Source of the DNA: Eledone cirrhosa
Taxonomy: Eukaryota
Assembly (NCBI GenBank): GCA_964016885.1
Contig: OZ024743.1
Location: 255,068,001 to 255,132,000 of the forward strand
DNA: 64,000 nucleotides
Direction of reading: 5' to 3'
This document shows positions 8,652 to 57,039 of the stretch, one piece after another. The translations under genes were made by a program, and so were the position numbers. The first letter of the stretch is position 1; the number at the start of each line of letters is the position of its first letter. The notes below the pieces were generated by a model. It saw only the letters and a list, made by a program, of their open reading frames with translations, was not told the origin of the DNA and did no database searches.

Positions 8652-8934
8652 ATTAAAGGTGGAAAACTGGGAGAGGGCACCTGCCTTGTTGGTCAGGGTC
8701 ACTGTGGCCTTTTACTGGGCTTTCTCAACAAATGTCCCTCCGAAGTCTCCCCCCTATAGGGGAATTTTTCATTGTTATTTTTTGTTACATCCTCTGTTTT
8801 TGTTTTTTACACGCAGAAATGCCCATTTGTACCGTCTTATATTGTCCAGCACTGTCCTTAATGTCTACTTTATGTAAACCCTTGTGGTTAATAAAGAAAT
8901 CATTATTATTATTATTGTTATTATTATTATTATT

Positions 8935-10615
8935 GTTCTTTGAGTCTCAGTCATTGATGTTAGTTAACTGGAAAGTTTGTTGAAATGAATATCAAGCCAC
9001 TACTTGCGGCCTCAGATATTCAGGACGTATCGGAGGGTTCTTGCTGTTCCCAGCAAGCATGCCTTTTGAAGCGTTCCAAAAAGTGTGAAGGGGCCAATTT
9101 TCTTTAACCATCCCTGGAAACTTTTTGAGATAGTACCTAGTGCGCCTATGACAATCGGGACCACTTTGACTTCATGGCAGTTCCAAATTCTTTTTACCTC
9201 CCACTTTAAGTCCTGGTATCGGTTAATTTTCTCCCTCTCCTTCTCTTGCACTCTCGTGTCGAAGGGGCAGGCCACATCCACAATCAGGCACGATCTTTTT
9301 TCTTTGTCCAAAACCACCAGGTCAGGTCTATTGTGTTCCAGTTTCTTGTCCGTCTGTATCCTAAAATCCCACAGCACCTTCACCTGGTCGTTTTCTATCA
9401 CCGACTCCGGCTTATGCTCATACCACTTCTCAGAATGTGGTAAATTGTTTACTTTGCATAGGTGCCAGTGGATCACCCGGCCCATCACATCATGTCTCCA
9501 GCCCTTATAGTGAGTCTGGGCTAGGTGTTTACACTCGGATACAATGTGAGCCACAGTCTCCTCTCTCTCTCCACAGATCCTGCACAGTGGGCTAGCTTCC
9601 TCCTTGTAAATATCGTGTTTCAACCACTTCGTTTTGAGGGCCTGCTCTTGCGCAGTCATTAACATTCCTTTTGTAGCCTTTTTAAGGTCTCCTCTTTTCA
9701 ACCAGTTCCATGTCTGTGGATCTCTGAATTCAGTTTTCTCAAAGTAGGTACTATGAAGGGATTTTTCCTGAAGGCTGCTCTTTCTCCTTGTTGTTATTTC
9801 CTCCCTGGACATCCCCTGGTCTATTGTCCTCTCCTTCATTACAGTTCTGAGCATTGGCTTCTTACTATCAGTCACGTATTTGTGTAGGTTGTTTTTCTCC
9901 ATCTGAACACAGTCCTCTAGGCTGATAAGACCTCTTCCACCTTCAGATCTCCTTAAGTAGAGTCTATCGACATCACTCCTCTTGTGGAACATGTTGTAGA
10001 TAGTCAATAATTTCCTAGTCTTCCTATCCATTTCTTTTTGTTCAGCAACATTCCATCTCAGAATTCCCGCACTGTACCTAATAATAGACACAGCTCGGGA
10101 GTTTACTGCACTTATGGCATTCCTACTGTTCAGATGTGACTTTAATACGCTCCTTACTCTCCGAATGTATTCAGTTCTTATCAATTCCTTCATTTTTTTG
10201 TTCTTGATGTCATCAGCCTCCAGAACACCCAAATACTTGTATCCTTCTTCAGTGTCAATTTCCTTTACCATCTCACCTGTTGGTACCTGGATTCCGTTGC
10301 TTCTGCTCAATTTACCCCTCTTCATCACAAGGACTCCACACTTGCTAATACCAAATTGCATACATATATCATTGCTGAAAATACGGACAGTGTCAACAAG
10401 CACATCCAACTCCTTCTCGCTCTTCCCGAAGAGCTTAAGATCGTCCATGAAGAGGAGGTGGTTGATGTTTAGCTCTCCCTTTCCCAACTTGTATCCTGCT
10501 CTCACTTTTCGCAGTATAATGGTCAGGGGCTTCAGGGCAAGGACAAACAACAGAGGGGACAGACTATCTCCCTGGAAGATACCTCTCTTGATCTTCACGC
10601 CTCCCAAGGATTCTC
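8935..10615 (-). mobile_element. R4/Dong-type RLE non-LTR retrotransposon copy 1 (5'-truncated, divergent subfamily)
   Basis: GIFQGDSLSP, LFMDD (RT); CRIC..ETVAHIVSEC (CCHC); RPDLVV..IVDVACP..EKINRY (RLE); (AAT)n at both ends; reading frame 9012-10607 is open. Confidence 0.92.
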
Positions 10616-10639
10616 ATTATTATTATTATTATTATTATT

Positions 10640-12327
10640 GTTGTTATTCCTTGAATCTCAGTCATTGATGTTGGTTAACTGGAAAGTCCGTTGGATTGAA
10701 TATCAAGCCACTACCTGCAGCCTCAGATATTCAGGACGTATCGGAGGGTTCTTGCTGTTCCAAGCAAGCATGCCTTTTGAAGCGTTCCAAAAAGCGTGAA
10801 GGGGCCGATTTTCTTTAACCATCCCTGGAAACTTTTGGAGATAGTCCCCAGTGCGCCTATGACAATCGGGATCACTTTGACTTCATGGCAGTTCCAAATC
10901 CTTTTCACCTCCCACTTTAGGTCCTGGTATCGGTTAATTTTCTCCCTCTCCTTCTCTTGCACTCTCGTGTCGAACGGGCAGGCCACATCCACAATCAGAC
11001 ACGATCTTTTTTCTTTGTCTACAACCACCAGGTCAGGTCTATTGTGTTCCAGTTTTTTGTCCGTCTGTATCCTAAAATCCCACAGCACCTTCACCTGATT
11101 GTTCTCCATCACCGCCTCTGGCCTATGCTCATACCATTTCTCAGAATGTGGTAAATTGTTTACTTTGCACAGGTTCCAGTGGATCACCCTGCCCATCACA
11201 TCGTGTCTCCAGCCCTTATAGTGGGTCTGGGCTAGGTGTTTACACTCGGACACAATGTGAGCCACAGTCTCCTCTCTCTCTCCACAGATCCTGCACAGTG
11301 GGCTAGCCTCCTCCTTGTAGATATGGTGCTTCAACCACTTCGTTTTGAGGGCCTGCTCCTGCGCAGCCATTAGCATTCCTTCTGTAGCCTTTTTGAGGTC
11401 TCCTCTTCTCAACCAGTTCCATGTCTGTGGATCTCTAAATTCAGTTTTCTCAAAGAAGGTACTATGAAGGGATTTTCCCTTAAGGCTGCTCTTCCTCCTT
11501 GATGTTATTTCCTCCTTGGACATCCCCTGGCCTACTGTCCCCTCCTTCAGTACAGTTTTGAGCATTGGCTCCTTACTATAGGTCACGTATTTGTATAGGT
11601 TGTTTTTCTCCATCTGAACACAGTCCTCTATGCTGATAAGACCTCTTCCACCCTCAGATCTCCTTAGGTAGAGTCTATCGACATCACTCCTCTTGTGGAA
11701 CATGTTGTAGATAGTCAATAGCTTCCTAGTCTTCCTATCCATTTCTTTTTGTTCAGCAACATTCCATCTCAGAATTCCCGCACTGTACCTAATAATAGAC
11801 ACAGCTCGGGAATTTACTGCGCTTATGGCATTTCTGCTGTTCAGATGTGACTTCAATACGCTCCTTACTCTCCGAATGTATTCAGTTCTTAACAATTCCT
11901 TCATTTTTTTTGTTCTTTATGCCATCAGCCTCCAGAACGCCCAAATACTTGTATCCTTCCTCAGAGTCAATTTCCTTTATCATCTCACCAGTTGGTATCT
12001 GGATCCCGTTACTTCTGCTCAACCTACCCCTCTTCATCACAATGACTCCACATTTACCAATACCAAACTGCATACATATATCACTGCTGAAAATACGGAC
12101 AGTGTCAACAAGCACATCCAACTCCTTCTCACTTTTCCTGAAGAGCTTAAGATCGTCCATGAAGAGGAGGTGATTGATGGTAAGCTCTCCCCTTCCCAAC
12201 TTGTATCCTGCTCTCACTTTTCGCAGCATAATGGTCAAGGGCATCAGGGCAAGGACAAACAACAGAGGGGACAGACTATCTCCCTGGAAGATACCTCTCT
12301 TGATCTTCACGCCTCCCAAGGATTCTC
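10640..12327 (-). mobile_element. R4/Dong copy 2 (5'-truncated chimera; 1-nt frameshift in a T-run near 11904)
   Basis: Near-identical to copy 3 but carries the 5' junction of copy 1; T8 versus T7 in copy 3. Confidence 0.92.
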
Positions 12328-12351
12328 ATTATTATTATTATTATTATTATT

Positions 12352-15300
12352 GTTGTTATTCCTTGAATCTCAGTCATTGATGTTGGTTAACTGGAAAGTC
12401 CGTTGGATTGAATATCAAGCCACTACCTGCAGCCTCAGATATTCAGGACGTATCGGAGGGTTCTTGCTGTTCCAAGCAAGCATGCCTTTTGAAGCGTTCC
12501 AAAAAGCGTGAAGGGGCCGATTTTCTTTAACCATCCCTGGAAACTTTTGGAGATAGTCCCCAGTGCGCCTATGACAATCGGGATCACTTTGACTTCATGG
12601 CAGTTCCAAATCCTTTTCACCTCCCACTTTAGGTCCTGGTATCGGTTAATTTTCTCCCTCTCCTTCTCTTGCACTCTCGTGTCGAACGGGCAGGCCACAT
12701 CCACAATCAGACACGATCTTTTTTCTTTGTCCACAACCACCAGGTCAGGTCTATTGTGTTCCAGTTTTTTGTCCGTCTGTGTCCTAAAATCCCACAGCAC
12801 CTTCACCTGATTGTTCTCCATCACCGCCTCTGGCCTATGCTCATACCATTTCTCAGAATGTGGTAAATTGTTTACTTTGCACAGGTGCCAGTGGATCACC
12901 CTGCCCATCACATCGTGTCTCCAGCCCTTATAGTGGGTCTGGGCTAGGTGTTTACACTCGGACACAATGTGAGCCACAGTCTCCTCTCTCTCTCCACAGA
13001 TCCTGCACAGTGGGCTAGCCTCCTCCTTGTAGATATGGTGCTTCAACCACTTCGTGTTGAGGGCCTGCTCCTGCGCAGCCATTAGCATTCCTTCTGTAGC
13101 CTTTTTGTGGTCTCCTCTTCTCAACCAGTTCCATGTCTGTGGATCTCTAAATTCAGTTTTCTCAAAGAAGGTACTATGAAGGGATTTTCCCTTAAGGCTG
13201 CTCTTCCTCCTTGAGGTTATTTCCTCCTTGGACATCCCCTGGCCTACTGTCCCCTCCTTCAGTACAGTTCTGAGCATTGGCTCCTTACTATAGGTCACGT
13301 ATTTGTATAGGTTGTTTTTCTCCATCTGAACACAGTCCTCTATGCTGATAAGACCTCTTCCACCCTCAGATCTCCTTAGGTAGAGTCTATCGACATCACT
13401 CCTCTTGTGGAACATGTTGTAGATAGTCAATAGCTTCCTAGTCTTCCTATCCATTTCTTTTTGTTCAGCAACATTCCATCTCAGAATTCCCGCACTGTAC
13501 CTAATAATAGACACAGCTCGGGAATTTACTGCGCTTATGGCATTTCTGCTGTTCAGATGTGACTTCAATACGCTCCTTACTCTCCGAATGTATTCAGTTC
13601 TTAACAATTCCTTCATTTTTTTGTTCTTTATGCCATCAGCCTCCAGAACGCCCAAATACTTGTATCCTTCCTCAGAGTCAATTTCCTTTATCATCTCACC
13701 AGTTGGTATCTGGATCCCGTTACTTCTGCTCAACCTACCCCTCTTCATCACAATGACTCCACATTTACCAATACCAAACTGCATACATATATCACTGCTG
13801 AAAATACGGACAGTGTCAACAAGCACATCCAACTCCTTCTCACTTTTCCCGAAGAGCTTAAGATCGTCCATGAAGAGGAGGTGATTGATGGTAAGCTCTC
13901 CCCTTCCCAACTTGTATCCTGCTCTCACTTTTCGCAGCATAATGGTCAAGGGCATCAGGGCAAGGACAAACAACAGAGGGGACAGGCTATCTCCCTGGAA
14001 GATACCTCTCTTGATCTTCACGCTTCCCAAGGATACTCCAGTTGATGTCAACTCTGTCACCCAGGACCCCATACTCCTGCCTAGCAACTGTCTGATGTTA
14101 TCTGCCACCCTGAAGATCTCCAGGCTTTTGGTGATCCAGGAATGAGGCACCATGTCAAATGCCTTTCTGTAGTCTATCCATCCCATGGCAAGATCAGTGT
14201 GTCTCCTCCTGCAATTCCCCATTACCATCTTATCAATAAGTAACTGGTCCTTTGTACCACGCGACTTCTTTCGGCATCCTTTCTGTTCGTCCGGTAACAA
14301 GTTGTTTGTGTGGAGGTGATGGTAGATTTCCTCAGACACAATGCTCGTCAACAGTTTCCACATTACGGACAGACATGTGATAGGTCTATAGTTGGTAACA
14401 TCATTACCCTTGATTCGGTCTTTCATTATCAGAACTGTGGTACCTTTTGTCAACCACTCTGGCACCTCACCCGACACCAAGCAGTCATTGAACATGGCCG
14501 TCAGCTTCGGGTGGAGGGATGTTAAATGTTTAATCCAATACCCCTGCACACCATCTGGGCCTGGTGATTTCCAGTTGGTTAGTTTTTTGGCCTGCCCCTT
14601 AAGAGTTTCAACTGTGATACTCAAATCAGTTTGTTGTTGTGCCTGCTCACCGATCTCCCTCTGTACTCTCTCAATCCACCCTGCATGGGCATTGTGTCTA
14701 ACATCCTGCTCCCATATTCCTCTCCAGAATGTTTTAGTTTGCTCCGCCCCAGGGATCAAGTCGTTGCCTCTTTCTTTCCCCTCAAGCTGTCCAAACAGCA
14801 TCTTCTGGTTGTTGTCGAACATGCGGTTCTGTTTATACTGACTGTCTCTGTTCTCGTATCGCCTGATTTTTGCACTCTTTGCTACAATGCGTTGCTTCAG
14901 TTCCTCTATGATAATATTTAGCTTTTTCCTCCTAGTTTTGTATTTTATTTCCAGTCTATTTTTAGTGCCTATGTTTTTTAGTGTCCCATTCAGTAGTGAC
15001 TCAAGCTTTCCTATGTCATTTCTCATTTCCCCGATTTGCCCACTCAGTCGCTTCTTCCACCACGGCTCTGCTCTTTCTTGTCTGTTGTTTCCTCTCGCTT
15101 TTATACCAAGTAGTTTCCTCACCGTATTTGCTGTTGCTTTGAGGATATTGTTGCACTGGTGAAGGCTCCTCGCCTCAAGGTATGGGATGACTTTGTTTAC
15201 CTTAGCTGTTGTTTCTTTTAACTTTTTCCTGTCTACAAATCTTAGGTTCATAGGTCTCCCACTATCATTGTTCAATTCATCTACCACTAAATTTAGGATG

Positions 15301-16024
15301 TCAACCGAATCTTGTCCTAGCCCGTCAGCATTCATCTCCTCAGTGGCCGTATCTCTGTTCCAGGTATTATTTATCTCAGTATTCAGATCATTGTCTGCTT
15401 CGGGTGGTTCCTCCGTTCTCAGGACCTCTTCACCTTCATTTCCCACTGGCTCGCTTGTCTGGCATACTACACCCGCCATCTCCAAGCCATTCTCTCTGCT
15501 CAGTTCCTCCAGTTCCAGCTCGCTTATCCACCCATTAGTTCTTATTACCCGAGCCTGCCCGGCCAATTTTTGTTCATCTAATTTAAATAAACCAATCTCG
15601 TTCCAGATGTTATGCATCCGTCTCCTGTAGCCCCTCTCCTTGGGGTTACTTTTCAGGTAACATTGCATAACAGTTCTATTCAATTCTTTCGTCCAGTTGG
15701 TTCTGACCCCTTTCCTTCTTCTCCTTCCTCCAACATCAGCAGTATTTGGTTGACAGTCAGGTTCCTGCTGCTGAGCCAGGGGGCACCTGTTGGGTGAGAG
15801 TCTGTCACATGACGTTCTAGTCTCCATTTCACCGTTATTCGAACTGTTTATGTTCGATATTTAAACACTCTTTTCGAGGATTGGCGAATGTATGGTTACA
15901 TATCCATCTGTGGATCCGCCATTCCACTTGGCCCTTGTGTGGCATTATCACCACGCTGTATACGAACACACATAAACAAACAAACACACAGGCAGAAAGG
16001 GCCCCAAAAATGAATAAGCATAAG

Positions 16025-16025
<1 letters not shown>
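12352..16025 (-). mobile_element. R4/Dong copy 3, apparently full length
   Basis: ~200 nt 5'UTR, single long ORF, ~80 nt 3'UTR, (AAT)n flanks. Confidence 0.93.
12435..15827 (-). CDS. Intact 1130 aa R4/Dong polyprotein: N-terminal nucleic-acid-binding region, RT, CCHC, PD-(D/E)xK RLE
   Basis: ATG start; WTKELN..CY..GYRRRM..IW N-terminal motif; KSPGPDG, YRPITCL, IDYRKAFD, QGDSLSP, FMDD; RHD; RPD..D..K..Y. Confidence 0.93.
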   Translation of the reverse strand: METRTSCDRLSPNRCPLAQQQEPDCQPNTADVGGRRRRKGVRTNWTKELNRTVMQCYLKSNPKERGYRRRMHNIWNEIGLFKLDEQKLAGQARVIRTNGWISELELEELSRENGLEMAGVVCQTSEPVGNEGEEVLRTEEPPEADNDLNTEINNTWNRDTATEEMNADGLGQDSVDILNLVVDELNNDSGRPMNLRFVDRKKLKETTAKVNKVIPYLEARSLHQCNNILKATANTVRKLLGIKARGNNRQERAEPWWKKRLSGQIGEMRNDIGKLESLLNGTLKNIGTKNRLEIKYKTRRKKLNIIIEELKQRIVAKSAKIRRYENRDSQYKQNRMFDNNQKMLFGQLEGKERGNDLIPGAEQTKTFWRGIWEQDVRHNAHAGWIERVQREIGEQAQQQTDLSITVETLKGQAKKLTNWKSPGPDGVQGYWIKHLTSLHPKLTAMFNDCLVSGEVPEWLTKGTTVLIMKDRIKGNDVTNYRPITCLSVMWKLLTSIVSEEIYHHLHTNNLLPDEQKGCRKKSRGTKDQLLIDKMVMGNCRRRHTDLAMGWIDYRKAFDMVPHSWITKSLEIFRVADNIRQLLGRSMGSWVTELTSTGVSLGSVKIKRGIFQGDSLSPLLFVLALMPLTIMLRKVRAGYKLGRGELTINHLLFMDDLKLFGKSEKELDVLVDTVRIFSSDICMQFGIGKCGVIVMKRGRLSRSNGIQIPTGEMIKEIDSEEGYKYLGVLEADGIKNKKMKELLRTEYIRRVRSVLKSHLNSRNAISAVNSRAVSIIRYSAGILRWNVAEQKEMDRKTRKLLTIYNMFHKRSDVDRLYLRRSEGGRGLISIEDCVQMEKNNLYKYVTYSKEPMLRTVLKEGTVGQGMSKEEITSRRKSSLKGKSLHSTFFEKTEFRDPQTWNWLRRGDHKKATEGMLMAAQEQALNTKWLKHHIYKEEASPLCRICGEREETVAHIVSECKHLAQTHYKGWRHDVMGRVIHWHLCKVNNLPHSEKWYEHRPEAVMENNQVKVLWDFRTQTDKKLEHNRPDLVVVDKEKRSCLIVDVACPFDTRVQEKEREKINRYQDLKWEVKRIWNCHEVKVIPIVIGALGTISKSFQGWLKKIGPFTLFGTLQKACLLGTARTLRYVLNI

Positions 16026-16054
<29 letters not shown>

Positions 16055-16058
<4 letters not shown>

Positions 16059-19000
16059 GTTATTGTTATTCCTTGAATCTCAGTCATTGATGTTGGTTAA
16101 CTGGAAAGTCCGTTGGATTGAATATCAAGCCACTACCTGCAGCCTCAGATATTCAGGACGTATCGGAGGGTTCTTGCCGTTCCAAGCAAGCATGCCTTTT
16201 GAAGCGTTCCAAAAAGCGTGAAGGGGCCGATTTTCTTTAACCATCCCTGGAAACCTTTGGAGATAGTCCCCAGTGCGCCTATGACAATCGGGATCACTTT
16301 GACTTCATGGCAGTTCCAAATCCTTTTCACCTCCCACTTTAGGTCCTGGTATCGGTTAATTTTCTCCCTCTCCTTCTCTTGCACTCTCGTGTCGAACGGG
16401 CAGGCCACATCCACAATCAGGCACGATCTTTTTTCTTTGTCCACAACCACCAGGTCAGGTCTATTGTGTTCCAGTTTTTTGTCCGTCTGTATCCTAAAAT
16501 CCCACAGCACCTTCACCTGACTGTTCTCCATCACCGCCTCTGGCCTATGCTCATACCATTTCTCAGAATGTGGTAGATTGTTTACTTTGCACAGGTGCCA
16601 GTGGATCACCCTGCCCATCACATCGTGTCTCCAGCCCTTATAGTGGGTCTGGGCTAGGTGTTTACACTCGGACACAATGTGAGCCACAGTCTCCTCTCTC
16701 TCTCCACAGATCCTGCACAGTGGGCTAGCCTCCTCCTTGTAGATATGGTGCTTCAACCACTTCGTTTTGAGGGCCTGCTCCTGCGCAGCCATTAGCATTC
16801 CTTCTGTAGCCTTTTTGAGGTCTCCTCTTCTCAACCAGTTCCATGTCTGTGGATCTCTAAATTCAGTTTTCTCAAAGAAGGTACTATGAAGGGATTTTCC
16901 CTTAAGGCTGCTCTTCCTCCTTGATGTTATTTCCTCCTTGGATATCCCCTGGCCTACTGTCCCCTCCTTCAGTACAGCTCTGAGCATTGGCTCCTTACTA
17001 TAGGTCACGTATTTGTATAGGTTGTTTTTCTCCATCTGAACACAGTCCTCTATGCTGATAAGACCTCTTCCACCCTCAGATCTCCTTAGGTAGAGTCTAT
17101 CGACATCACTCCTCTTGTGGAACATGTTGTAGATAGTCAATAGCTTCCTAGTCTTCCTATCCATTTCTTTTTGTTCAGCAACATTCCATCTCAGAATTCC
17201 CGCACTGTACCTAATAATAGACACAGCTCGGGAATTTACTGCGCTTATGGCATTTCTGCTGTTCAGATGTGACTTCAATACGCTGCTTACTCTCCGAATG
17301 TATTCAGTTCTTAACAATTCCTTCATTTTTTTGTTCTTTATGCCATCAGCCTCCAGAACGCCCAAATACTTGTATCCTTCCTCAGAGTCAATTTCCTTTA
17401 TCATCTCACCTGTTGGTATCTGGATCCCGTTACTTCTGCTCAACCTACCCCTCCTCATCACAATGACTCCACATTTACCAATACCAAACTGCATACATAT
17501 ATCCCTGCTGAAAATACGGACAGTGTCAACAAGCACATCCAACTCCTTCTCACTTTTCCCGAAGAGCTTAAGATCGTCCATGAAGAGGAGGTGATTGATG
17601 GTAAGCTCTCCCCTTCCCAACTTGTATCCTGCTCTCACTTTTCGCAGCATAATGGTCAAGGGCATCAGGGCAAGGACAAACAACAGAGGGGACAGGCTAT
17701 CTCCCTGGAAGATACCTCTCTTGATCTTCACGCTTCCCAAGGATACTCCAGTTGATGTCAACTCTGTCTCCCAGGACCCCATACTCCTGCCCAGCAACTG
17801 TCTGATGTTATCTGCCACCCTGAAGATCTCCAGGCTTTTGGTGATCCAGGAATGAGGCACCATGTCAAATGCCTTTCTGTAGTCTATCCATCCCATGGCA
17901 AGATCAGTGTGTCTCCTCCTGCAATTCCCCATTACCATCTTATCAATAAGCAACTGGTCCTTTGTACCACGTGACTTCTTTCGGCATCCTTTCTGTTCGT
18001 CCGGCAACAAGTTGTTTGTGTGGAGGTGATGGTAGATTTCCTCAGACACAATGCTCGTCAACAGTTTCCACATTACGGGCAGACATGTGATAGGTCTATA
18101 GTTGGTAACATCATTACCCTTGATTCGGTCTTTCATTATCAGAACTGTGGTACCTTTTGTCAACCACTCTGGCACCTCACCCGACACCAAGCAGTCATTG
18201 AACATGGCCGTCAGCTTCGGGTGGAGGGATGTTAAATGTTTAATCCAATACCCCTGCACACCATCTGGGCCTGGTGATTTCCAGTTGGTTAGTTTTTTGG
18301 CTTGCCCCTTAAGAGTTTCAACTGTGATACTCAAATCAGTCTGTTGCTGTGCCTGCTCACCGATCTCCCTCTGTACTGTCTCAATCCACCCTGCCTGGGC
18401 ATTGTGTCTAACATCCTGCTCCCATATTCCTCTCCAGAATGTTTTAGCTTGTTCCGCCCCAGGGATCAAGTCGTTGCCTCTTTCTTTCCCCTCAAGCTGT
18501 CCAAACAGCAGCTTCTGGTTGTTGTCGAACATGCGGTTCTGTTTATACTGACTGACTCTGTTCTCGTATCGCCTGATTTTTGCACTCTTTGCTACAATGC
18601 GTTGCTTCAATTCCTCTATGATAATATTTAGCTTTTTACTCCTAGTTTTGTATTTTATTTCCAGTCTATTTTTAGTGCCTATGTTTTTTAGTGTCCCATT
18701 CAGTAGTGACTCAAGCTTTCCTATGTCATTTCTCATTTCCCCGATTTGCCCACTCAGTCGCTTCTTCCACCACGGCTCTGCTCTTTCTTGTCTGTTGTTT
18801 CCTCTCGCTTTTATACCAAGTAGTTTCCTCACCGTATTTGCTGTTGCTTTGAGGATATTGTTGCACTGGTGAAGACTCCTCGCCTCAAGGTATGGGATGA
18901 CTTTGTTTACCTTAGCTGTTGTTTCTTTTAACTTTTTCCTGTCTACAAATCTTAGGTTCATAGGTCTCCCACTATCATTGTTCAACTCATCTACCACTAA

Positions 19001-19440
19001 ATTTAGGATGTCAACCGAATCTTGTCCTAGCCCGTCAGCATTCATCTCCTCAGTGGCCGTATCTCTGTTCCAGGTATTATTTATCTCAGTATTCAGATCA
19101 TTGTCTGCTTCGGGTGGTTCCTCCGTTCTCAGGACCTCCTCACCTTCATTTCCCGCCGGCTCGCTTGTCTGGCATACTACACCCGCCATCTCCAAGCCAT
19201 TCTCTCTGCTCAGTTCCTCCAGTTCCAGCTCGCTTATCCACCCATTAGTTCCTATTACCCGAGCCTGCCCGGCCAATTTTTGTTCATCTAATTTAAATAA
19301 ACCAATCTCGTTCCAGATGTTATGCATCCGTCTCCTGTAGCCCCTCTCCTTGGGGTTACTTTTCAGGTAGCATTGCATAACAGTTCTATTCAATTCTTTC
19401 GTCCAGTTGGTTCTGGCCCCTTTCCTTCTTCTTCTTCCTC

Positions 19441-19441
<1 letters not shown>
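16055..19441 (-). mobile_element. R4/Dong copy 4, lacking the 5'UTR and first ~33 codons; frame otherwise open (16145-19441)
   Basis: High identity to copy 3 up to GGRRRRKG, then (AAT)n at 19442-19490. Confidence 0.92.
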
Positions 19442-19495
<54 letters not shown>

Positions 19496-19583
19496 CAATC
19501 AATCATGCTAGAAACCAACAAATAAGAAAATGCATTAGGATAAATTTTTATTAGTTTCATACTTTATTGAAAATAAGCTAAAC

Positions 19584-46750: not shown

Positions 46751-47269
46751 AACATCACTAATCCATCGAATGATGTTTGTTATTTGTTCTGGATCTTTCA
46801 GTTCAGAGTTCAAATTCCAATGTAGTCAATAAATAAAGCCAAGAACTAGAGTTGAATAAACTTCTTCTTCTCTTTCATATTTTGTCTTTTTCTCTTTCAC
46901 TAGGAAAAAATCACTTGTGTTCCACTATGGAGAGAGATGGGCTATGCCAGGATAACATTGCTTATGGCATACCATATGCTATTATGATATACTATACAAA
47001 TCTATTTAGTCCCCAGCGCATGGAATGTACTTATACACATGACAGATTACTCTACTTCATATACAAGGTAGAATTCTGAATTGTATACAAGCAACAATAT
47101 TATTGGTGCATTTGTTCTTTATTTTCTTTTATACATGTACATATGTATTATATGCATGTATGCAAATAACTGAGTGTATGAATTTTGTGCATGTGTATAT
47201 GGCGCTACCCACGATTGTCTGAGAATACATGTGTATATATATATATATGTGTGTGTTTATACATAGAAC

Positions 47270-47667
47270 AATAAAAAAACAGAACTCAGGTGTAGGTAGA
47301 TAGTTAGATCGTTGTTTTATGATCGTTTCAGAGGGTTGATTGATCAATGAAGATCGGTCTTTTGACTAGAATGGCAGTGGTTAAGTTTCTACCTATTTCT
47401 AGTCTTGAAATCCATGTTCAATTGGCTGTCTTCTTCAGAAACACACGCATATATATATATATATATGTACATACAAGAATATATCAGTGTGTGTTTCTGA
47501 AGAAGGCAGCCAATTGAACATGGATTTCAAGACTAGAAATAGGTAGAAACTTAACCACTGCCATTCTAGTAAAAACACCGATCTTTATCGATCAATCAAC
47601 CGTCTGAAACGATCGTAAAACAACGATCTAACTATCTACCTACACCTGAGTTCTGTTCTTTTTATTA
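47270..47667. repeat. Head-to-head inverted repeat (~175 bp arms) of a hammerhead element
   Basis: 47270-47447 versus 47488-47667, few mismatches, TA-rich spacer. Confidence 0.95.
47492..47622 (+). ncRNA. Type I hammerhead with ~100 nt branched stem II (mirror copy 47313-47443, minus strand)
   Basis: TGTTT-CTGAAGA-AGGCAG..CCGTCT-GAAA-CGATCG-TA|AAACA; internal helices GACTAGAA/TTCTAGT, GGTAG/CTGCC, TTGAA/TTCAA. Confidence 0.8.
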
Positions 47668-47941
47668 TAAAGGCGCGCATGTGATTTTATGTTTGTGTGC
47701 ATGTATGTATATATACAAATGTATATATATATATATATACAAAATTAAATTAAATTAAATTAAGGTGTCATGTCAGAGAGACATGCACCATATCCACTGT
47801 AGAATATGCTCCAAGATTCCAATAAAAATAGATCCGAGTATTTTTTATCAACTAGAAATTGATTGACATATATATATCTAAAATAAACATATGAAACAAT
47901 CACAGGGAATAATTTGTAAAAGTGTATAAGCATTGTAGGAT

Positions 47942-48013
47942 GGGCTCGCCCGGGATTTGAACCCGGGACCTCTCGCACCCAAAGCGAGAATCATACCCCT
48001 AGACCAACGAGCC
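47942..48013 (-). tRNA. tRNA-Pro-TGG: tRNA-Pro (TGG)
   Basis: GGCTCGTTGGTCTAGGGGTATGATTCTCGCTTTGGGTGCGAGAGGTCCCGGGTTCAAATCCCGGGCGAGCCC; complete cloverleaf with a U7-G66 wobble; no CCA; TTTT ~20 nt downstream. Confidence 0.96.
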
Positions 48014-48765
48014 AATCATTATTATCTGCTTAAATATATCCTAGTAATTATAGTTTGAATGTTACATGTAAAAGAGTATTCCCTCTGATTGTTTCATATG
48101 TTTATTTTAGATATATATATATGTCAATCAATTTCTAGTTGATATATATATATATATATAAAGTTATATCAGTATAGATACAAAGTTGGTAATGGAGACT
48201 GCACCAACATGTATAAATATACACACATATCTAATATGTAGGCATGTAAACATGCCAGAAAATATGTATTTCTCTGTAAGTTGAGAAAATGCTAAATATA
48301 TTTACACAAATCTCAGATCTAATAGGACTTTAATCTGAACATATGTATATCATCCAATCAACCACAAGTGAGTACGTATTTCATGAATATATATCTCCAT
48401 TCACCCTTCGTATTATTCTGAAATGGATGTAGTAATTGGCATTTAATAAACACTTCTTTTAGTAATGAAGATATTTATTAAGAAGTGCATTAGTAGCAGA
48501 AGTGTATGATAAAGTCATATCTGTATAAATACAGTGTGTTTAACAAAGACTGTACTAACATGTAAAAATATATATATCTATGGTAGTTGTGCTCTATATG
48601 TGTGAGTGTGAATGTATGTATGTATGCATGTGTCTAATTATCTATACACCCACGTTATTTGTTTTTGTAACTCATGAAAACATATGAAAAAGATCCTTAC
48701 ATTTTGCTGAAGTCTATATATTTATTTTAAAGTACCTGTCATCATGAGCAGTTATACTCACCCAC

Positions 48766-48808
<43 letters not shown>

Positions 48809-48810
<2 letters not shown>

Positions 48811-49445
48811 CTTTGGTTTTCCATCAGAAATCCATCGGATTTATGAGGTTTTACAAAGCGAAACTGATCAGTAAGGGCCACTAGGAGAGGTAAATATTTA
48901 TATTATATTTTTTAATGTATTTTAAAAAATTGATTGAATTTTACTTGTTCAGCTTATCTTAATATTAAAATTCTGGTGTATCAAATTAATACCATTGAAC
49001 AAACTTGAATCATAGACAACCTATTTATTTCTAGGGGTACCTAGTATCCTTGGACATATTAACTTCATTCATTATGCTCCGTTATGTTGAGAACAAATCT
49101 GTTGTTCTATTTAGCTGCTATTTTTTTAGTAGTAATTGTAGACAGCAAGTCTTTGATTTTCCCGCTTTTACTTCGGTCCAGTTTACATACGGGTCACTTT
49201 TACGACCTTTCAGACCTTTATTTGCTGGCAGGAGGTCATATATTTTGTCGTTCCTGGGACGTTTAGCCCTAGGAAAGGAAAATGCTTTTCTGATGAGCTT
49301 TGGTTTTCCATCAGAAATCCATCGGATTTATGAGGTTTTACAAAGCGAAACTGATCGGTAAGGGCCACTAGGAGAGGTAAATATTTATATTATATTTTTT
49401 AATGTATTTTAAAAAATTGATTGAATTTTACTTGTTCTGCTTATC

Positions 49446-49452
<7 letters not shown>
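48809..49452 (+). mobile_element. (TA)n-flanked retrozyme-like unit A: period 487 nt, 157 nt terminal redundancy
   Basis: 48809-48965 equals 49296-49452 apart from ~2 substitutions; contains a hammerhead. Confidence 0.85.
49284..49366 (+). ncRNA. Type I hammerhead, intact core, long stem II
   Basis: CTGATGA-GCTTTG..CAAAGC-GAAA-CTGATCGG-TA|AGGGC; stem I is G-U rich. Confidence 0.85.
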
Positions 49453-49506
<54 letters not shown>

Positions 49507-49629
49507 GTGTTCCAATTGCAAATGACCAAGTTAGCTCGGTTGAAAAATACTAATTTAAAACAATATGGTTTGCCTGACTCGATTTAACGTAATAAATCAA
49601 TAAAAATAACAAACATATATCGGGCAAAT

Positions 49630-49708
49630 GATACCCGGACAGATGTAAATCTGTTTCGCAAGGATTATTAAGTGAAAGCTAGAATTCCTGTGCTCTTCTG
49701 CGGCTATC
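49630..49708 (-). ncRNA. Type I hammerhead with full stem III, U4A core variant
   Basis: GATAGCCG-CAGAAGA-GCA(C)AGGA..TCCTTGC-GAAA-CAGAT-TTAC-ATCTG-TC|CGGGTATC, inside a (TA)n-flanked segment 49503-49846. Confidence 0.8.
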
Positions 49709-49861
49709 CAGGAAAATGGAACACGTGTACTTTTATCTGTGTTCATCCCTCTCATATATCCAATTATATTACACGGGTCGGAAAGATTCCCTTCTTTGAG
49801 CTATTTAATTGTAAAAGACAATTCTGAGTTTCTAACTCAATCTATGATATATATATATATA

Positions 49862-52138
49862 TATTGTTATACTTGGGGAGGGTCATATTTGTGTAATATT
49901 GCCAGAATTAATAACAGAACACACTCACTGTTTGGTTGGTTTTCGCTTCTCGCTTTTATATCGCTAATCTAACTTACTCGGTCCTCAATGTTGCCATTGA
50001 CTGACCGACGGTCAAAAATAATACAGATACAATATAGACACAAACGCATATATATAGTTTATCATAAATCTTTCGTTGCACATCTGCAACATCGTCAGTG
50101 GTGCTATATTTTCCTCCTCTTGTATTGTATGTCTACGCCATTTTTATTCAGTCTGTCTATATATTTATTTATTTATTTGCTTGTTTGTTTATTTTGTTTT
50201 GTCTTCTTTGCGCATGCGTTTGCGTGTGTGTATAGTGTTTTGTTTGCTGTGTGATGGGTGACTAGTGTGTGTTTATGTGCTTGTTGTTATTGTGCTTGTG
50301 TATGTATTTATTTATTTATTTATCTTATTTTATTTACTTATTTATACTTCTCTTAGGTCAGTGTTGTTTGTTTGGGTGTTGTTGTTATTCCATTCATTCT
50401 TTCTGTTTAGCTTTGGTCTTCTAATTTCTATTTCACTGGCCTCTCTGATTTGCCTATCTGCTGGGTCATTTCTATGTTTAGATATTATTCTAATTCCTAT
50501 GTTGTCTATGTTACCGTCATGTTGTTGTCTAGCATGTTCGTATAGTACTGACCCGTTTTTTCGTCCTTTTAGTTCCCCCCAGTGTTGGTCTATCCTTTCA
50601 CCTATGCTACGAACTGTCTCACCTATGTATGTTGTTGTCATGTTTCTGCAAGTACCCTCTGTACATCTTATGCTATAGACTACGTTTCTAGTTTTACAGT
50701 TTATCCGGGGGTTCACCTTACATATGATACATTTCCTATTGGTACAGTGGGTTTTCTTAAAAGGGTAGGTTTTGCTGATCAGGAATTTTATGGTGGTTCC
50801 TGGCTTTTCTACCACCTTTATTTTTAAGTGGGTCTTTCTCAGGGCCTTTCTACACTGGTTAGCTAATTTCCCTCCAGGGGTAGCGTCCACAAACATGACA
50901 CTCTGGTATCTCTGGTTGTCGTACCATGAGGTGGCTTTCCCTATCTTATGTCTAGCCCTATCTAAGCTATTCCATGATTTGCTCCTGTATAATGGGCAAA
51001 TTCCTTTCATGTCCAGTTCTATGAGGGTCTTATACTTCTCCATGGCTCCTTCGTATACTCTGACTCTGTCTCTTTGGTTGTAGCCAGAGAACTGCATGCG
51101 GTTGATGAACTGTTGGATGTGTCTTTCCATTTCTGTTGGGTCGCACATACGGGACACATTCTTCATCACTTGTACCAAATCTGCGATCAGAATATTAAAC
51201 TTAGCACTACTGGACATTGCTGAGTTTTTGAGTATCAGGTATTTGGAGGCCATGGGTTTAGCATAGTGTGAGTGGAGAATTTGGGCTCTCTCGTTTATAG
51301 TGTTAATCCAGAGTTCTGTGTCTAATACAGGTAGTCTATTGTTAGGGTGTTTGGAAGTGAAGTCGATAGTTACAGTTACACTCTGGTGTATGGAATTAGC
51401 CTTCTGCTGGATGCTTTCCATCGTGCTACGTTCTAAATCAAACTTGTTAGTGCTCTCTAGTGGGGGTTTTCCTATAACTATATTGATATCGTATACATAA
51501 CGAGAGTACATGATGAGGTCTATGGAGCTCTCATTAAGGAGATCTTTAAGTCTCCTTTCCCACCATACCATGAACAAGTTGGCAACATCACTAGCTATGC
51601 TGACGCCGATGGCTGCTCCCTCATTTTAGGTGTAGATCTTCTCGTTGAACTTAAATATGTGGCTCGTTAGGGTAGTTTTGATACTAGCCTCTATTGCATG
51701 TGCGACCATTTTCCTTACCTGATCATTGTTTTGGGGGGTCCGTATAGCTTTGGTCCACCCAATCCACCTTCCCATGGGAGTCTTTTTATTATTGTTATCA
51801 TGGTGGTTGTTGTTGTTTCTATCATGAGCATTATTATTATTATTATGATTGCTAGATGTATTGTTGTTTACTTCACCGTTATTGTTGTTGTTACTGTTAT
51901 TTCTACCATTGTGGTTGTTGCTTTTATTATGTTTCTTGTTTTTGTTGTGCCTATCATTGATGTTGCTACATGTACTATTTCCATTATTACCACTCTGGTT
52001 ATTGTTGTTGTTGTTCGTATTGTTACCGTTATTATTACTGTGGTCGCTTCTGCTATGTCTGTGGTTAATGTTTCTATTATTATTGTTAATGTGGTTGTTG
52101 TTTTTCTGTCTATCGTTAGTAGGTTCTATCCTACTAGG
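49862..52138 (-). mobile_element. Penelope-like (Naiad-like) element, inverted left copy
   Basis: ORF 50342-51577: RT C-terminal half (YSRYVYD), CxxxxCxxC and GIY-YIG VVYSIRC..YIGET; Asn-rich segment 51785-52138. Confidence 0.9.
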
Positions 52139-54945
52139 TTACCCTTTAATAAAAGAGTTTGCATACCACAACAAATAGATGACGAGACAGACGCACAGTT
52201 CACCATAGCTAGAAATAAGATTAGACAAATATTAGACAGGTATACTAAGAGACAGAGCAGACCAGAGGCCCAAAAACTTGGGAGAAAACCTGTAGAAGGC
52301 TTGGTTAGCCTCAAGCAGCGCACAAGGGATGGTGAGGTAGTATGTCTACCCATGGATACGTCTGGTAGGATGTCAATAGATAGCATGCCGAACTATATCA
52401 AGGCTATGCAGCCCCACATCACCAACACGAACGAAGTTGCACAACAAACACACGAGGGGAGAGAGAAAATCCTCAACGCTCACATGATGATGTGGATTGA
52501 CATCCTAAAGCCAAGCAGACGCACTGCCAACAACTAACAATGGCATGCCATCCTTGTATGGGCTCCGCAAAGACCACAAGATAGTCGACGACCCGACAAC
52601 AGGACCACCAACAAGACCCGTATGCGGAGCTAATATAGCTAGTAACTACAGGATCTCCTACTTCCTCTCAATGGTTATACGCCCCATAATCAAGATGTCC
52701 CCAGATGTATGTGACAGTACAGAGGACCTCCTCAGCAGAATCAGTGAGTGCAACAAAAACAGGTACCTATCCAACAGCATAATAGGCAGCATGGATGTGG
52801 TGTCACTGTACCCATCCATTAACATTGATTTTGCTGTGAAAAGATGTGTGGAGATGATTATTGAGAGTGAAGTGGAGTTCTGCGACGTCGACACAGACGA
52901 ACTGGGCCTCCTACTTAGACTTACCTACGACACTAACTACCTAGACAGCCATGACCTTAGACGTTTCTGCCCTAGTAGACCTATAAGAGGTAGACCCCCC
53001 ACCATAACCTCAATGGCTAAAAAGACTCCCATGGGAAGGTGGATTGGGTGGACCAAAGCTATACGGACCCTCCAAAACAATGATCAGGTAAGAAAAATGG
53101 TCGCACATGCAATAGGGGCTAGTATCAAAACTACCCTAATGGGCCACATATTTAAGTTCAACGAGAAGATCTACACCCAAAATGAGGGAGCAGCCATCGG
53201 CGTTAGCATAGCTGGTGATGTTGCCAAACTTTTCATGGTATGGTGGGAAAGGAGACTTAAATATCTCCTTAATGAGAGCTCCATAGACCTCATCATGTAC
53301 TCTCGTTATGTAGATGATATCAATATAGTTATAAGAACATCCCCACTACAGAGCACTAACAAGTTTGATTTAGAACGTAGCACGATGGAAAGCATCCAGC
53401 AGATAGCTAATTCCATACACCAGAGTATAACTGTAACTATCGACTTCCCTTCCAAACACCCTAACAATAGACTACCTGTATTAGACACAGAACTCTGGAT
53501 TAACACTATAGACGAGAGAGCCCAAATTCTCCACTCACACTATGCTAAAGCCATGGCCTCCAAATACCTGATACTCAAAAACTCAGCAATGTCCAGTAGT
53601 GCTAAGTTTAATATTCTGATCGCAGATTTGGTACGAGTGATGAAGAATGTGTCACGCATGTGCGACCCAACAGAAATGGAAAGACACATCCAACACTTCA
53701 TCAACCGCATGCAGTTCTCTGGCTACAACCAAAGAGACAGAGTCAGAGTATACGAAGGAGCCATGGAGAATTATAAGACCCTCATAGAACTGGACATGAA
53801 AGGAATTTGCCCATTATACAGGAGCAAATCATGGAATAGCTTAGATACGGCTAGACATAAGATAGGGAAAGCCACCTCATAGTACGACAACCAGAGATAC
53901 CAGAGTGTCATGTTTGTGGACGCTACCCCTGGAGGGAAATTAGCTAACCAGTGTAGAAAGGCCCTGAGAAAGACCCATTTAAAAATAAAGGTGGTAGAAA
54001 AGCCAGGAACCACCATAAAATCCCTGATCAGCAAAACCTACCCTTTTAAGAAAACCCACTGTACCAATAGGAAATGTATCATATGTAAGGTGAACCCCCG
54101 GATAAACTGTAAAACTAGAAACGTAGTCTATAGCATAAGATGTACAGAGGGTACTTGCAGAAACATGACAACAACATACATAGGTGAGACAGCTCGTAGC
54201 ATAGGTGAAAGGATAGACCAACACTGGGGGGAACTAAAGGACGAAAAAACGGGTCAGTACTATACGAACATGCTAGACAACAACATGACGGTAACATAGA
54301 CAACATAGAAATTAGAATAATATCTAAACATAGAAATGACCCAGCAGATAGGCAAATCAGAGAGGCCAGTGAAATAGAAATTAGAATACCAAGATTAAAT
54401 AGAATGAATGAATGGAATAACAACAACACCCAAACAAAAAACACTGACCTAAGAGAAGTATAAATAAGTAAATAAAATAAAATAACTAAATAAATACATA
54501 CACAAGCACAATAACAACAAGCACATAAACACACACTAGTCACCCATCACACAGTGAACAAAACACTATACACACACGCAAACGCATGCGCAAAGAAGAC
54601 AAAACGAAAATAAACAAACAAGCAAATAAATAAATAAATATATAGACAGACTGAATAAAAATGGCGTAGACATACAATACAACAGGAGGAAAATATAGCA
54701 CCACTGACGATGTTGCAGATGTGCAACGAAAGATTTATGATAAACTATATATATGTGTGTGTGTCTATATTGTATCTGTATTATTTTTGACCGTCGGTCA
54801 GTCAATGGCAACATTGAGGACCGAGTAAGTTAGATTAGCGATATAAAAGACACAGAAGCGAGAAACGAAAACCAACCAAACAGTGAGTGTGTTCTGTTAT
54901 TAATTCTGGCAATATTACACAAATATGACCCTCCCCAAGTATAAC

Positions 54946-54946
<1 letters not shown>
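52139..54946 (+). mobile_element. Penelope-like (Naiad-like) element, right copy: RT and GIY-YIG disrupted (breaks near 52537, 53882, 54240), then pLTR
   Basis: DTSGR, GLRKDHK, GPPTRPVC, SMDVVSLYPSI, GAAIG, RYVDD, LPVLD; clade assignment is by motif resemblance only. Confidence 0.9.
54693..54750 (+). ncRNA. Minimal type I hammerhead in the Naiad-like pLTR (mirror copy 50052-50109, minus strand)
   Basis: ATATAG-CACCA-CTGACGA-TGTTGCA-GATG-TGCAAC-GAAA-GATT-TA|TGATAAA-CTATAT. Confidence 0.8.
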
Positions 54947-54977
<31 letters not shown>

Positions 54978-55193
54978 CGTATATATATATATATGTATTT
55001 CCCTAAAATATTCTTTCATTCATAATATTCTTTTCCATCCAAAACTGAAATCTACCTTCCTCTACCCATAAATTAAGGTTCTCTTCCTACTAGATTGCTA
55101 TCTTGACCTTCACTTTCTTTCTATTGGTCAATTCAAAACCTGTTCCCAAACAGACCTATTGTATTAAATCTTTGTCTTTTCAATAAACAAATA

Positions 55194-55334
55194 TCATTAT
55201 TTCTGAAGACAGCATATATATGTGTAGGTATATATATTCCCTCTGATAGTTTGTATAAATATTTACATAGATCTATAGAATATGCATACCAACACTAACA
55301 CATATATATCCTAGAAACGATCATAAAATGATGA
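55194..55334 (+). ncRNA. Type I hammerhead with ~100 nt stem II
   Basis: TCATTATTT-CTGAAGA-..ATATATATGTGT/ACACATATATAT..-GAAA-CGATCA-TA|AAATGATGA (9 bp stem I). Confidence 0.75.
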
Positions 55335-55427
55335 ATGTTTTTAATATAAGGAACTGTTTCTTTGTTTATTCATTACTTTATTAATTTATATATATATATA
55401 TATATATGTGTGTGTATATATATGTCC

Positions 55428-56166
55428 AAAATTAAATTAAGGGTGTCATGTCCGAGAGACATGCGCCATATCCACTGTACAATATGCTCAAAGAATCCAA
55501 TGAATAGATCCGAGCATTTTATATCAACTAGAAATTGATTGACATATATATATATATATCTAAAATAAACATATGAAACAATCACAGGGAATAATTTGTA
55601 AAGTGTGTAAGCACACACAGCTAGGTAGGTAACTAATTAAAGTTTAACTAGAACTTTAAATAAAGATACCTTTTAAAATGTTTAATCTTCCTTGTATATA
55701 TTAAAGAAATATATTTCACCATCAATCGATCGGTAAATCACAGTAGTCAAATCCTGGATTTTCAATAAGGAAGAAAATTTAACTATATGTGTTTACACAG
55801 CAATTGCAAATCTGTGAATGAATAGTAGCACGTGTTGCATTTTTTTATAAATACACACATCGTACCATCGTCATCCCAGTGGCGTGAATAAGATTATCGA
55901 CAACTAGAAATGGCAGCCGAGTCCTTTCAACTGAGTTAGCTCTACAATTAAGGAGTCGTATATATATCGAAAATTAAATTAAGGGTGTCATGTCCGAGAG
56001 ACATGCGCCATATCCATTTTAAAATGTATCTATATTTAACGTTCTAGTTAAACTTTAATTAGTTACCTACTTAGCTGTGTGTGCTTACACACTTTACAAA
56101 TTATTCCCTGTGATTGTTTCATATGTTTAATTTAGATATATATATGTCAATCAATTTCTAGTTGAT
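55428..56166 (-). mobile_element. Retrozyme-like unit B: period 542 nt, ~47 nt redundancy, plus a 5' inversion (56015-56166)
   Basis: AAATTAAATTAAGGGTGTCATGTCCGAGAGACATGCGCCATATCCA at ~55428 and ~55970; 56015-56166 is an inverted copy of 55520-55680; candidate U3-A8 hammerhead at 55686-55774. Confidence 0.75.
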
Positions 56167-56198
56167 ATATATGTATATATATATATATATATAAAAAC

Positions 56199-56280
<82 letters not shown>

Positions 56281-56286
<6 letters not shown>

Positions 56287-56978
56287 CGTAAAATAAGAAA
56301 ATTATAAAATTAACTTACTTACTAAAATTTCACTCCCAACTAATTAGTTTCTGAAATGGAATAAATATATTTTCCGAAGAAGATATAGAGAATCATTTCG
56401 TCGTCAGGGAAGTCTATTCTCGGCTAAGTTTCCAGGCAAATCGTGGACTCTGGAAAAATTTATACAAAAATAATTCAGTGGATAGAAAATAGCAAAGTGT
56501 GGACTGAATTCCTAGCCATTGAGAAAATAACTGCCTACTGCGTCGGTGGCAAATTCAAAAAGAATCAATCACGTGACATCGAGGTTAATCAGTGGAAAGT
56601 GGTTTGTTAAGAAGACGGCGGCCTGCCTGCTACCATAGCAGCAGTCTTGGCCAATATTGTTCGACAAATAATTTGGAGATAATTATAAATAATTAATATA
56701 TCTAGTAACATATATATACATACAGATGCACATCAATGCTAGCAAATATATAGGTTTTGTCTTAGTAACTTTGTGGTTCAATGCATGGGGTCGCAGAACA
56801 ATAATATGAGAGACGTAAATTAAGAAAATTATAAAATTAACTTACTTACTAAAATTTCACTCCCAACTAATTAGTTTCTGAAATGGAATAAATATATTTT
56901 CCGAAGAAGATATAGAGAATCATTTCGTCGTCCTGATGTGCATCTGTATGTATATATATGTTACTAGATATATTAATT
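56281..56978 (-). mobile_element. Retrozyme-like unit C: period 527 nt, ~125 nt redundancy, plus a 5' inversion (56934-56978)
   Basis: 56281-56405 matches 56808-56932; 56934-56978 is the reverse complement of ~56690-56735; (TA)n on both sides. Confidence 0.85.
56332..56413 (-). ncRNA. Type I hammerhead with long stem II
   Basis: ACTTCC-CTGACGA-CGAAATG..CATTTCA-GAAA-CTAATTAG-TT|GGGAGT. Confidence 0.8.

Positions 56979-57039
<61 letters not shown>

Follow-up and report, generated by a model that had tools for sequence, protein, structure and literature searches.

How does a single tRNA gene come to lie between two oppositely oriented pieces of one repeat? This question is raised by a locus on contig C4 (255.07-255.13 Mb) of the 3.0-Gb Eledone cirrhosa genome, which we analysed within a stretch of 64,000 nucleotides, hereafter the window; positions without a contig name refer to it. 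When the minus strand is read, a (TA)n run (48143-48162), which adjoins the end of an older unrelated repeat, is followed by a 69-nt inverted piece of a repeat (48077-48145, plus strand), 63 nt of AT-rich DNA (48014-48076), an intact tRNA-Pro(TGG) gene without an encoded CCA (47942-48013), a 10-nt trailer (47932-47941), a directly oriented stretch of the same repeat, about 190 nt long (47741-47932), and, as seen in the sequence on the right side, a second (TA)n run (47722-47740). The tRNA gene was called by both ARAGORN and Rfam RF00005 (50.6 bits), and both find it to be the sole tRNA within the window. The initial annotation had placed a tRNA-Pro(TGG) on the minus strand with about 60 nt of upstream flank, followed after 9 nt by about 190 nt of homology to the tail of a second element, unit B, and preceded by an inverted piece of the same tail, and this description holds throughout. 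The flank measures 63 nt and carries the TATA-like TATATTTAA at -25 to -17, and the gap between tRNA and tail measures 9-10 nt, with one T being common to trailer and tail. A masked self-comparison of the window aligned the direct arm at 47752-47932 with unit B at 55429-55613 (89.9%, E 6e-54) and the inverted piece at 48077-48141 with 47849-47911 (95%). Directly beside the insertion, at 47270-47666, lies a near-perfect palindrome of about 400 nt with a TA centre, which belongs to another repeat arranged tail-to-tail.

The tail had been regarded as peculiar to unit B, which is not the case, since it corresponds to the 3' third of a repeat that occurs across the genome. This repeat, called family B here, is a non-coding, ORF-less monomer of about 545 nt that forms head-to-tail tandems and falls into at least two subfamilies. 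Short-pattern searches of the genome returned at least 804 exact copies of its left-arm end and at least 339 of its 3' motif. We picked 29 loci by the 5' part of the monomer and scored 74 ends, of which 26 run into the next monomer, 18 lie at 441-449, 11 at 534, 11 at 417-421 and 8 elsewhere. Three fixed sites (the 443, 534 and 419 regions) account for 40 of the 48 terminal ends, and 39 of these 40 lie at (TA)3 or longer. The family inserts into (TA)n with inverted plus direct arms, and the locus follows the same formula, namely 443-372 inverted, insert, 351-534 direct. Its left arm (reference 372-443) has its outer end in (TA)n at the family's fixed arm end, the one with 804 exact copies, and its right arm (reference 351-534) ends in (TA)n at the family's fixed 3' end. 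Unit B (55417-56170, minus strand) is a separate, ordinary insertion of the family, composed of an inverted arm, a short partial copy and a full monomer. The locus is a standard family B insertion that carries a passenger at its seam. A hairpin near monomer position 25-45 was also observed, in which pairing is kept across a G/A variant.

The layout of family B includes partial tandems, variable 5' truncation, an inverted 5' copy, fixed 3' ends at 443 and 534 (also 419) that give a one-sided tail, and a (TA)n target, all of which are features of non-autonomous Penelope-like elements (PLEs). Naiads are described with partial tandems, an inverted 5'-truncated copy, a one-sided tail, a (TA)n preference and no canonical hammerhead (Craig et al., PMC8557442), and Chlamys PLEs are reported to have non-autonomous partners (PMC8557442). 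Family B resembles the Naiad and Chlamys PLEs and the non-autonomous MRC1, as they are described there, in its partial tandems, 5' truncation, inverted 5' copy, one-end tail, (TA)n target and lack of a canonical hammerhead, while it differs in its tail of about 90 nt (443 to 534) compared with the 30-40 bp given for Naiad/Chlamys PLEs and in having no ORF (PMC8557442). Because the layout matches that described for PLEs, family B can be regarded as a Penelope-like footprint, an assignment made from layout only. A PLE protein has been reported to cut and extend both strands in vitro, and its reverse transcriptase (RT) to start, also in vitro, at two sites inside the RNA, by which the tail is defined (Frangieh et al., PMC11167929). 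By analogy, we infer that 443 and 534 may be internal RT start sites of the family B RNA. The window itself contains a PLE-like element at 49866-54945 with a 1.9-kb inverted 3' copy (96.7% identity), and the 3' end of this element abuts a family B arm at another locus (L193). Its ORFs at 52509-54299 are presumably of PLE identity, as judged from RT followed by GIY-YIG-type motifs. A Pfam search of these two ORFs gave no family match, and family B showed no sequence match to the PLE-like ORF copies of the window.

For the seams, we sampled 90 of the first 100 arm-end sites listed among the 804, all on C1 and all chosen by one arm end, and sought the seam within 400 nt, with boundaries that were taken from BLAST and are approximate. 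An inverted-to-direct seam was present in 67 of the 90 insertions, and 23 had no seam within 400 nt. The arms overlap at 36 of the 67 seams, and the others show gaps of 0-4 nt (12 seams), 5-19 nt (10), 20-49 nt (7) and 50 nt or more (2). Gaps of 12-45 nt were judged by eye to be family-derived and are therefore excluded from the count of foreign fillers. One seam (L157, 1506-1701) contains a 195-nt internal fragment of an older repeat family of 350-450 nt, lying between the arms without a flanking duplication, and this is a second true seam capture. The frequency of foreign filler is thus 1 in 67 seams (95% interval 0.04-8%), and no tRNA was found at the seam in any of the 90 sampled insertions. 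Two further candidates were rejected as seam fillers: at L179, the other of the two longest gaps, another repeat lies inside the TA run, and at L005 a SINE piece has a 15-nt flanking direct repeat, indicating a later insertion.

The repeat had been introduced as hammerhead family B, and the ribozyme part of this name did not stand up to Rfam, descriptor or core scans, none of which found a canonical hammerhead. Rfam gave no hammerhead match at E<=10 within 47000-57000. When a hammerhead descriptor was run on 17 monomers, none of 34 strands matched at one core mismatch or fewer, compared with 50 of 50 controls, and at two mismatches 5 of 34 real strands matched versus 11 of 34 shuffled ones. 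An exact CUGANGA core was absent from both strands of the 17 monomers, a strict pattern and a core-only scan for scrambled orders found no hammerhead above shuffles, and the closest look-alike, at monomer position ~10-45, has two core mismatches. Animal non-LTR retrozymes, as described in bioRxiv 10.64898/2026.07.22.740005, are likewise short, tandem, non-coding monomers that are probably PLE-moved, but they are defined there by a type I hammerhead in each unit, and none was found in family B. Under that definition family B is probably not a retrozyme, although a strongly degenerate or non-standard ribozyme may be present. Two other short elements lie nearby, at 56280-56932 and 48809-49448, with terminal direct repeats of 126 and 153 nt. 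In the first, the minus strand shows at 56407 an exact CUGACGA...GAAA core whose stem II is 4 bp long, and the second has a degenerate hammerhead core only. The core at 56407 is possibly the source of the earlier hammerhead label.

The origin of the passenger could be traced. The middle piece is 145 nt long (63 nt upstream, tRNA-Pro and the 10-nt trailer), and 144 of its 145 positions are identical to genes of a tandem array on contig C3. This match spans from -63 through the tRNA (72/72) to the tenth trailer base, and the sole mismatch is a trailer base at which the insert differs from all C3 copies seen. Among the best 40 of 465 candidates, which were scored, at least 7 C3 copies match over the 145 nt at 99%, with a spacing of 5030 bp. 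At the tenth trailer base the donor enters a T9 terminator, while the window switches to repeat. Since one C3 paralog has a G after the same trailer and then T5, the overlap at the right join is 1-2 nt, at the start of the terminator either way; the left join is blunt, and no direct repeat longer than 2 nt was found around the insert. No donor match was found in the outer flanks of the window's insertion, which consist of the (TA)n run and unrelated repeats, and other copies of the older repeat that ends at the left flank often run into (TA)n. Since the donor is unlinked and the outer flanks lack a donor match, the gene was, as judged from sequence, imported from the C3 cluster and was not resident, and for this reason it is also wrong to picture a resident tRNA with two insertions landing next to it by chance. 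Purifying selection on the tRNA is unsupported, with 0 changes in 72 positions of the tRNA and 1 in 73 of the flanks.

The donor region, at C3:235.84-236.18 Mb, is a large tandem tRNA-Pro cluster with periods of 5030 bp and ~1912 bp, in which the TGG and AGG genes are divergent, one upstream motif is present in at least 85 copies and several gene copies have decayed. At C3:235.985 Mb a tRNA-like SINE with a flanking duplication is inserted upstream of one donor-type tRNA gene, and this SINE has also entered the family B arm at L005.

Retrotransposons that target tRNA genes (Ty3/Ty1/TRE type) insert at a fixed distance from resident tRNA genes. The initial annotation had considered a similar event here, in which the repeat flanked a resident gene and its tail was co-opted as a new terminator, and the family arms do lie on both sides of the gene. 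However, the donor match is limited to 145 nt and does not reach the (TA)n-bearing outer flanks, family B targets (TA)n and has no copies in 70 kb of the donor cluster, where ARAGORN made 50 tRNA calls, and the survey of 90 insertions found no tRNA at any seam. The proposed terminator also has another history. The direct arm contains a T4 run at 47918-47921 (minus strand) that starts 21 nt after the tRNA and is a possible Pol III terminator, and both unit B copies have T3 at this site, as had been noted. What does not stand is that T4 was created here, since T4 is the majority state of the family (94 of 132 sites, compared with T3 in 25 of 132, overlapping loci being counted) and unit B carries the minority allele, indicating that no terminator was created by mutation. 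For these reasons we regard tRNA-targeted insertion as extremely improbable.

We then asked how many copies of the fusion the genome holds. A 24-nt stretch from the upstream flank was located at 10 sites, of which 9 are on C3 and one is the window, and an upstream motif common to most TGG paralogs occurs at 86 places, of which 85 lie in C3:235.84-236.18 Mb and one is the window. A pattern of the tRNA end plus trailer likewise has 10 matches, of which 8 lie on C3, one is the window and one is a decayed copy on C15, and among these the family B tail is found in the window alone. The full 405 nt is spanned by the window alone among the best 40 of 1989 candidates, which were scored. By these counts the fusion is single in this assembly. 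The decayed C15 copy (17.43 Mb; L107:1438-1521) carries the trailer and T3 but lacks both an upstream flank and a family B arm; SINE pieces come directly after it, and it looks like a pre-tRNA retrocopy.

These counts bear on the suggestion that the fusion is a nascent Penelope-dependent SINE, in which a Pol III transcript of tRNA plus tail is re-mobilised. The locus does have a tRNA-related head with intact A and B boxes and upstream DNA, placed in sense with the repeat part that bears both arm-end sites. On the contrary, dispersed copies of head plus tail were not found, and the 5' end does not lie at the Pol III start, since 63 nt of donor upstream DNA is present. Pol III daughters would be without this -63 flank, yet of the 10 places with the trailer pattern only the window has the tail. 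In addition, T4, T4 and T5 runs at +21, +59 and +114 all precede the 534 end, the T5 not being the state of the family. The SINE reading is therefore very unlikely as an account of the present locus, and because of the T runs and the lack of daughters a SINE future for the fusion is also unlikely. The Penelope-type mobilisation proposed in the initial annotation is accordingly retained in one part, that the tRNA moved within one insertion (donor on another contig, position at the seam, no duplication of its own), and given up in the other, that of a SINE being born, as the fusion is single. With intact A/B boxes and its upstream DNA kept, the captured gene appears promoter-complete and could serve as a stray tRNA gene ending at the arm's T4; a working tRNA gene here would be redundant beside the at least 85 cluster copies.

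A C3-derived 145-nt copy of a tRNA-Pro gene lies at the exact seam of a two-armed insertion; its donor, its single occurrence, this position, the target in (TA)n, the fixed arm ends and the tandem and inverted layout are all observed directly. We suggest, with a probability of roughly 80%, that it was captured once, as a bridge, during the joining of the arms. In the proposed course of events, a borrowed Penelope-type RT/endonuclease would cut the (TA)n run, and cDNA would be primed from both ends at the fixed repeat-RNA sites 443 and 534. Both cDNAs would stop early, at 372 and 351, after which synthesis would switch to a tRNA-gene template whose 3' end coincided with the Pol III terminator. 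Joining would then take place with 0-2 nt of overlap. The product would be a promoter-complete stray tRNA gene without daughters. Over 68 columns, the two arms are distinguished by one substitution and one TA unit, and the insert has 1 difference from its donor in 145 positions; since these divergences are alike small, both arms and the insert look similarly young.

An artificial joining of C3 and C4 sequences in the assembly has to be weighed here, since the insert is known from the assembly sequence. We consider such a chimera very improbable, because the insert is unlike every C3 copy seen at one trailer base, the left and right arms are not identical (one substitution and a TA unit), and both junctions fit the family pattern.

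The template of the bridge is less certain than the bridge itself. Since the TATA elements of tRNA genes are usually found at -34 to -29 (PMC3082873) and the piece extends past the TATA region to -63, a normal pre-tRNA fails as the template. A T4 near the 5' end of the piece itself and the TATA-like box at -39 to -32, which is shared by most TGG paralogs, also argue against a plain pre-tRNA. RNA is favoured by the sense orientation, by a 3' end that coincides with the terminator and by the existence of the C15 copy without an upstream flank. We consider DNA of the transcribed gene more likely than an unusually long RNA; the former has slightly better than even odds, the latter about one chance in three, and a template of another kind is improbable. 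One detail, found post hoc, is unexplained and fits no simple model: the first 5 nt of the arm recur in the donor just behind the T9 run, as 7 of 529 family positions would. A resemblance of the left junction to the donor, which involved one arm substitution, was dropped as chance-like (68/518).

The piece could also have been pasted at the seam by host double-strand-break repair rather than by the RT of the element, either while the insertion took place or later. It includes untranscribed upstream DNA, its joins have 0-2 nt of overlap, the seam would be the hairpin-prone centre of a palindrome, and breaks in yeast have been reported to capture DNA from repetitive and R-loop regions (PMC11724301). 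The templated insertions described in that report resemble the locus in that a short distant fragment is copied with little microhomology from donors that are often repetitive or R-loop-associated, and differ from it in that here two retroelement arms fill the break and the end of the fragment falls at a Pol III terminator. This 3' end at the terminator and the sense orientation with the direct arm speak against host repair, and if repair came later, it must have struck the seam and yet spared the inner ends of both arms. On the sequence, which is compatible with either copier, element RT or host repair, we rate host repair clearly below an even chance.

Capture as a bridge during arm joining has partial counterparts among known systems. 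The locus has a passenger from an unlinked donor at a 5' junction without a target duplication of its own, which is the pattern of a chimeric retro-insertion. Template switching and twin priming are proposed for U6/LINE-1 and tRNA/LINE-1 chimeras, in which U6 is full length and in sense (bioRxiv 10.1101/2025.02.02.635956), and as in these, a Pol III gene product entered along with a retroelement copy, on the 5'-truncated side of the latter. The 21 tRNA/LINE-1 cases given in the same preprint are mostly halves, antisense, RNA-sized and flanked by target-site duplications, whereas here the gene is whole, lies in sense between PLE-type arms in (TA)n and brings along 63 nt of upstream DNA as well as a trailer. 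Penelope elements of Adineta vaga are described as capturing host DNA in trans (PMC3846280), and similar to the present case, host sequence including parts outside the mature RNA lies between direct and inverted terminal repeats. The passengers described there are kilobases long and lie between direct pLTRs or inside the element (PMC3846280), unlike the 145-nt tRNA gene at the inversion seam of an ORF-less repeat. Our literature search, whose scope ended short of subscription journals and bioRxiv supplements, found no description of a promoter-bearing tRNA gene captured by a PLE.

The locus documents one accident that is well resolved, with the donor, both breakpoints and the family background known, and it does not speak for a new SINE, for tRNA targeting or for a terminator co-opted through mutation. 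It shows that a whole tRNA gene, together with upstream promoter DNA, can travel in a Penelope-type insertion, which the RNA-chimera models for U6/L1 and tRNA/L1 do not yield. The seam fillers of family B, at about 1 in 67, are a record of the material that joins PLE arms and bear on the last steps of PLE integration. A random 145-nt filler would hold a whole tRNA gene with a chance of about 5e-5, a rough value that guesses a few thousand tRNA genes in 3 Gb, so even a hundred random fillers would seldom contain one. This is a hint that Pol III genes are favoured as donors, from one case that was selected for its striking look. A doubtful extension is that Penelope-type machinery preferentially bridges its cDNA arms with the DNA of active Pol III genes, from promoter to terminator, and so recurrently scatters working tRNA genes fused to its own priming sites. 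If true, such bridging would repeatedly give rise to dispersed tRNA genes and to new PLE-dependent SINEs. Elsewhere in the window, at 8899-19498, we observed a tandem array of a young RT-encoding non-LTR element with two near-full ORFs (1117 and 1141 aa) and partial copies that are 93-99% alike.
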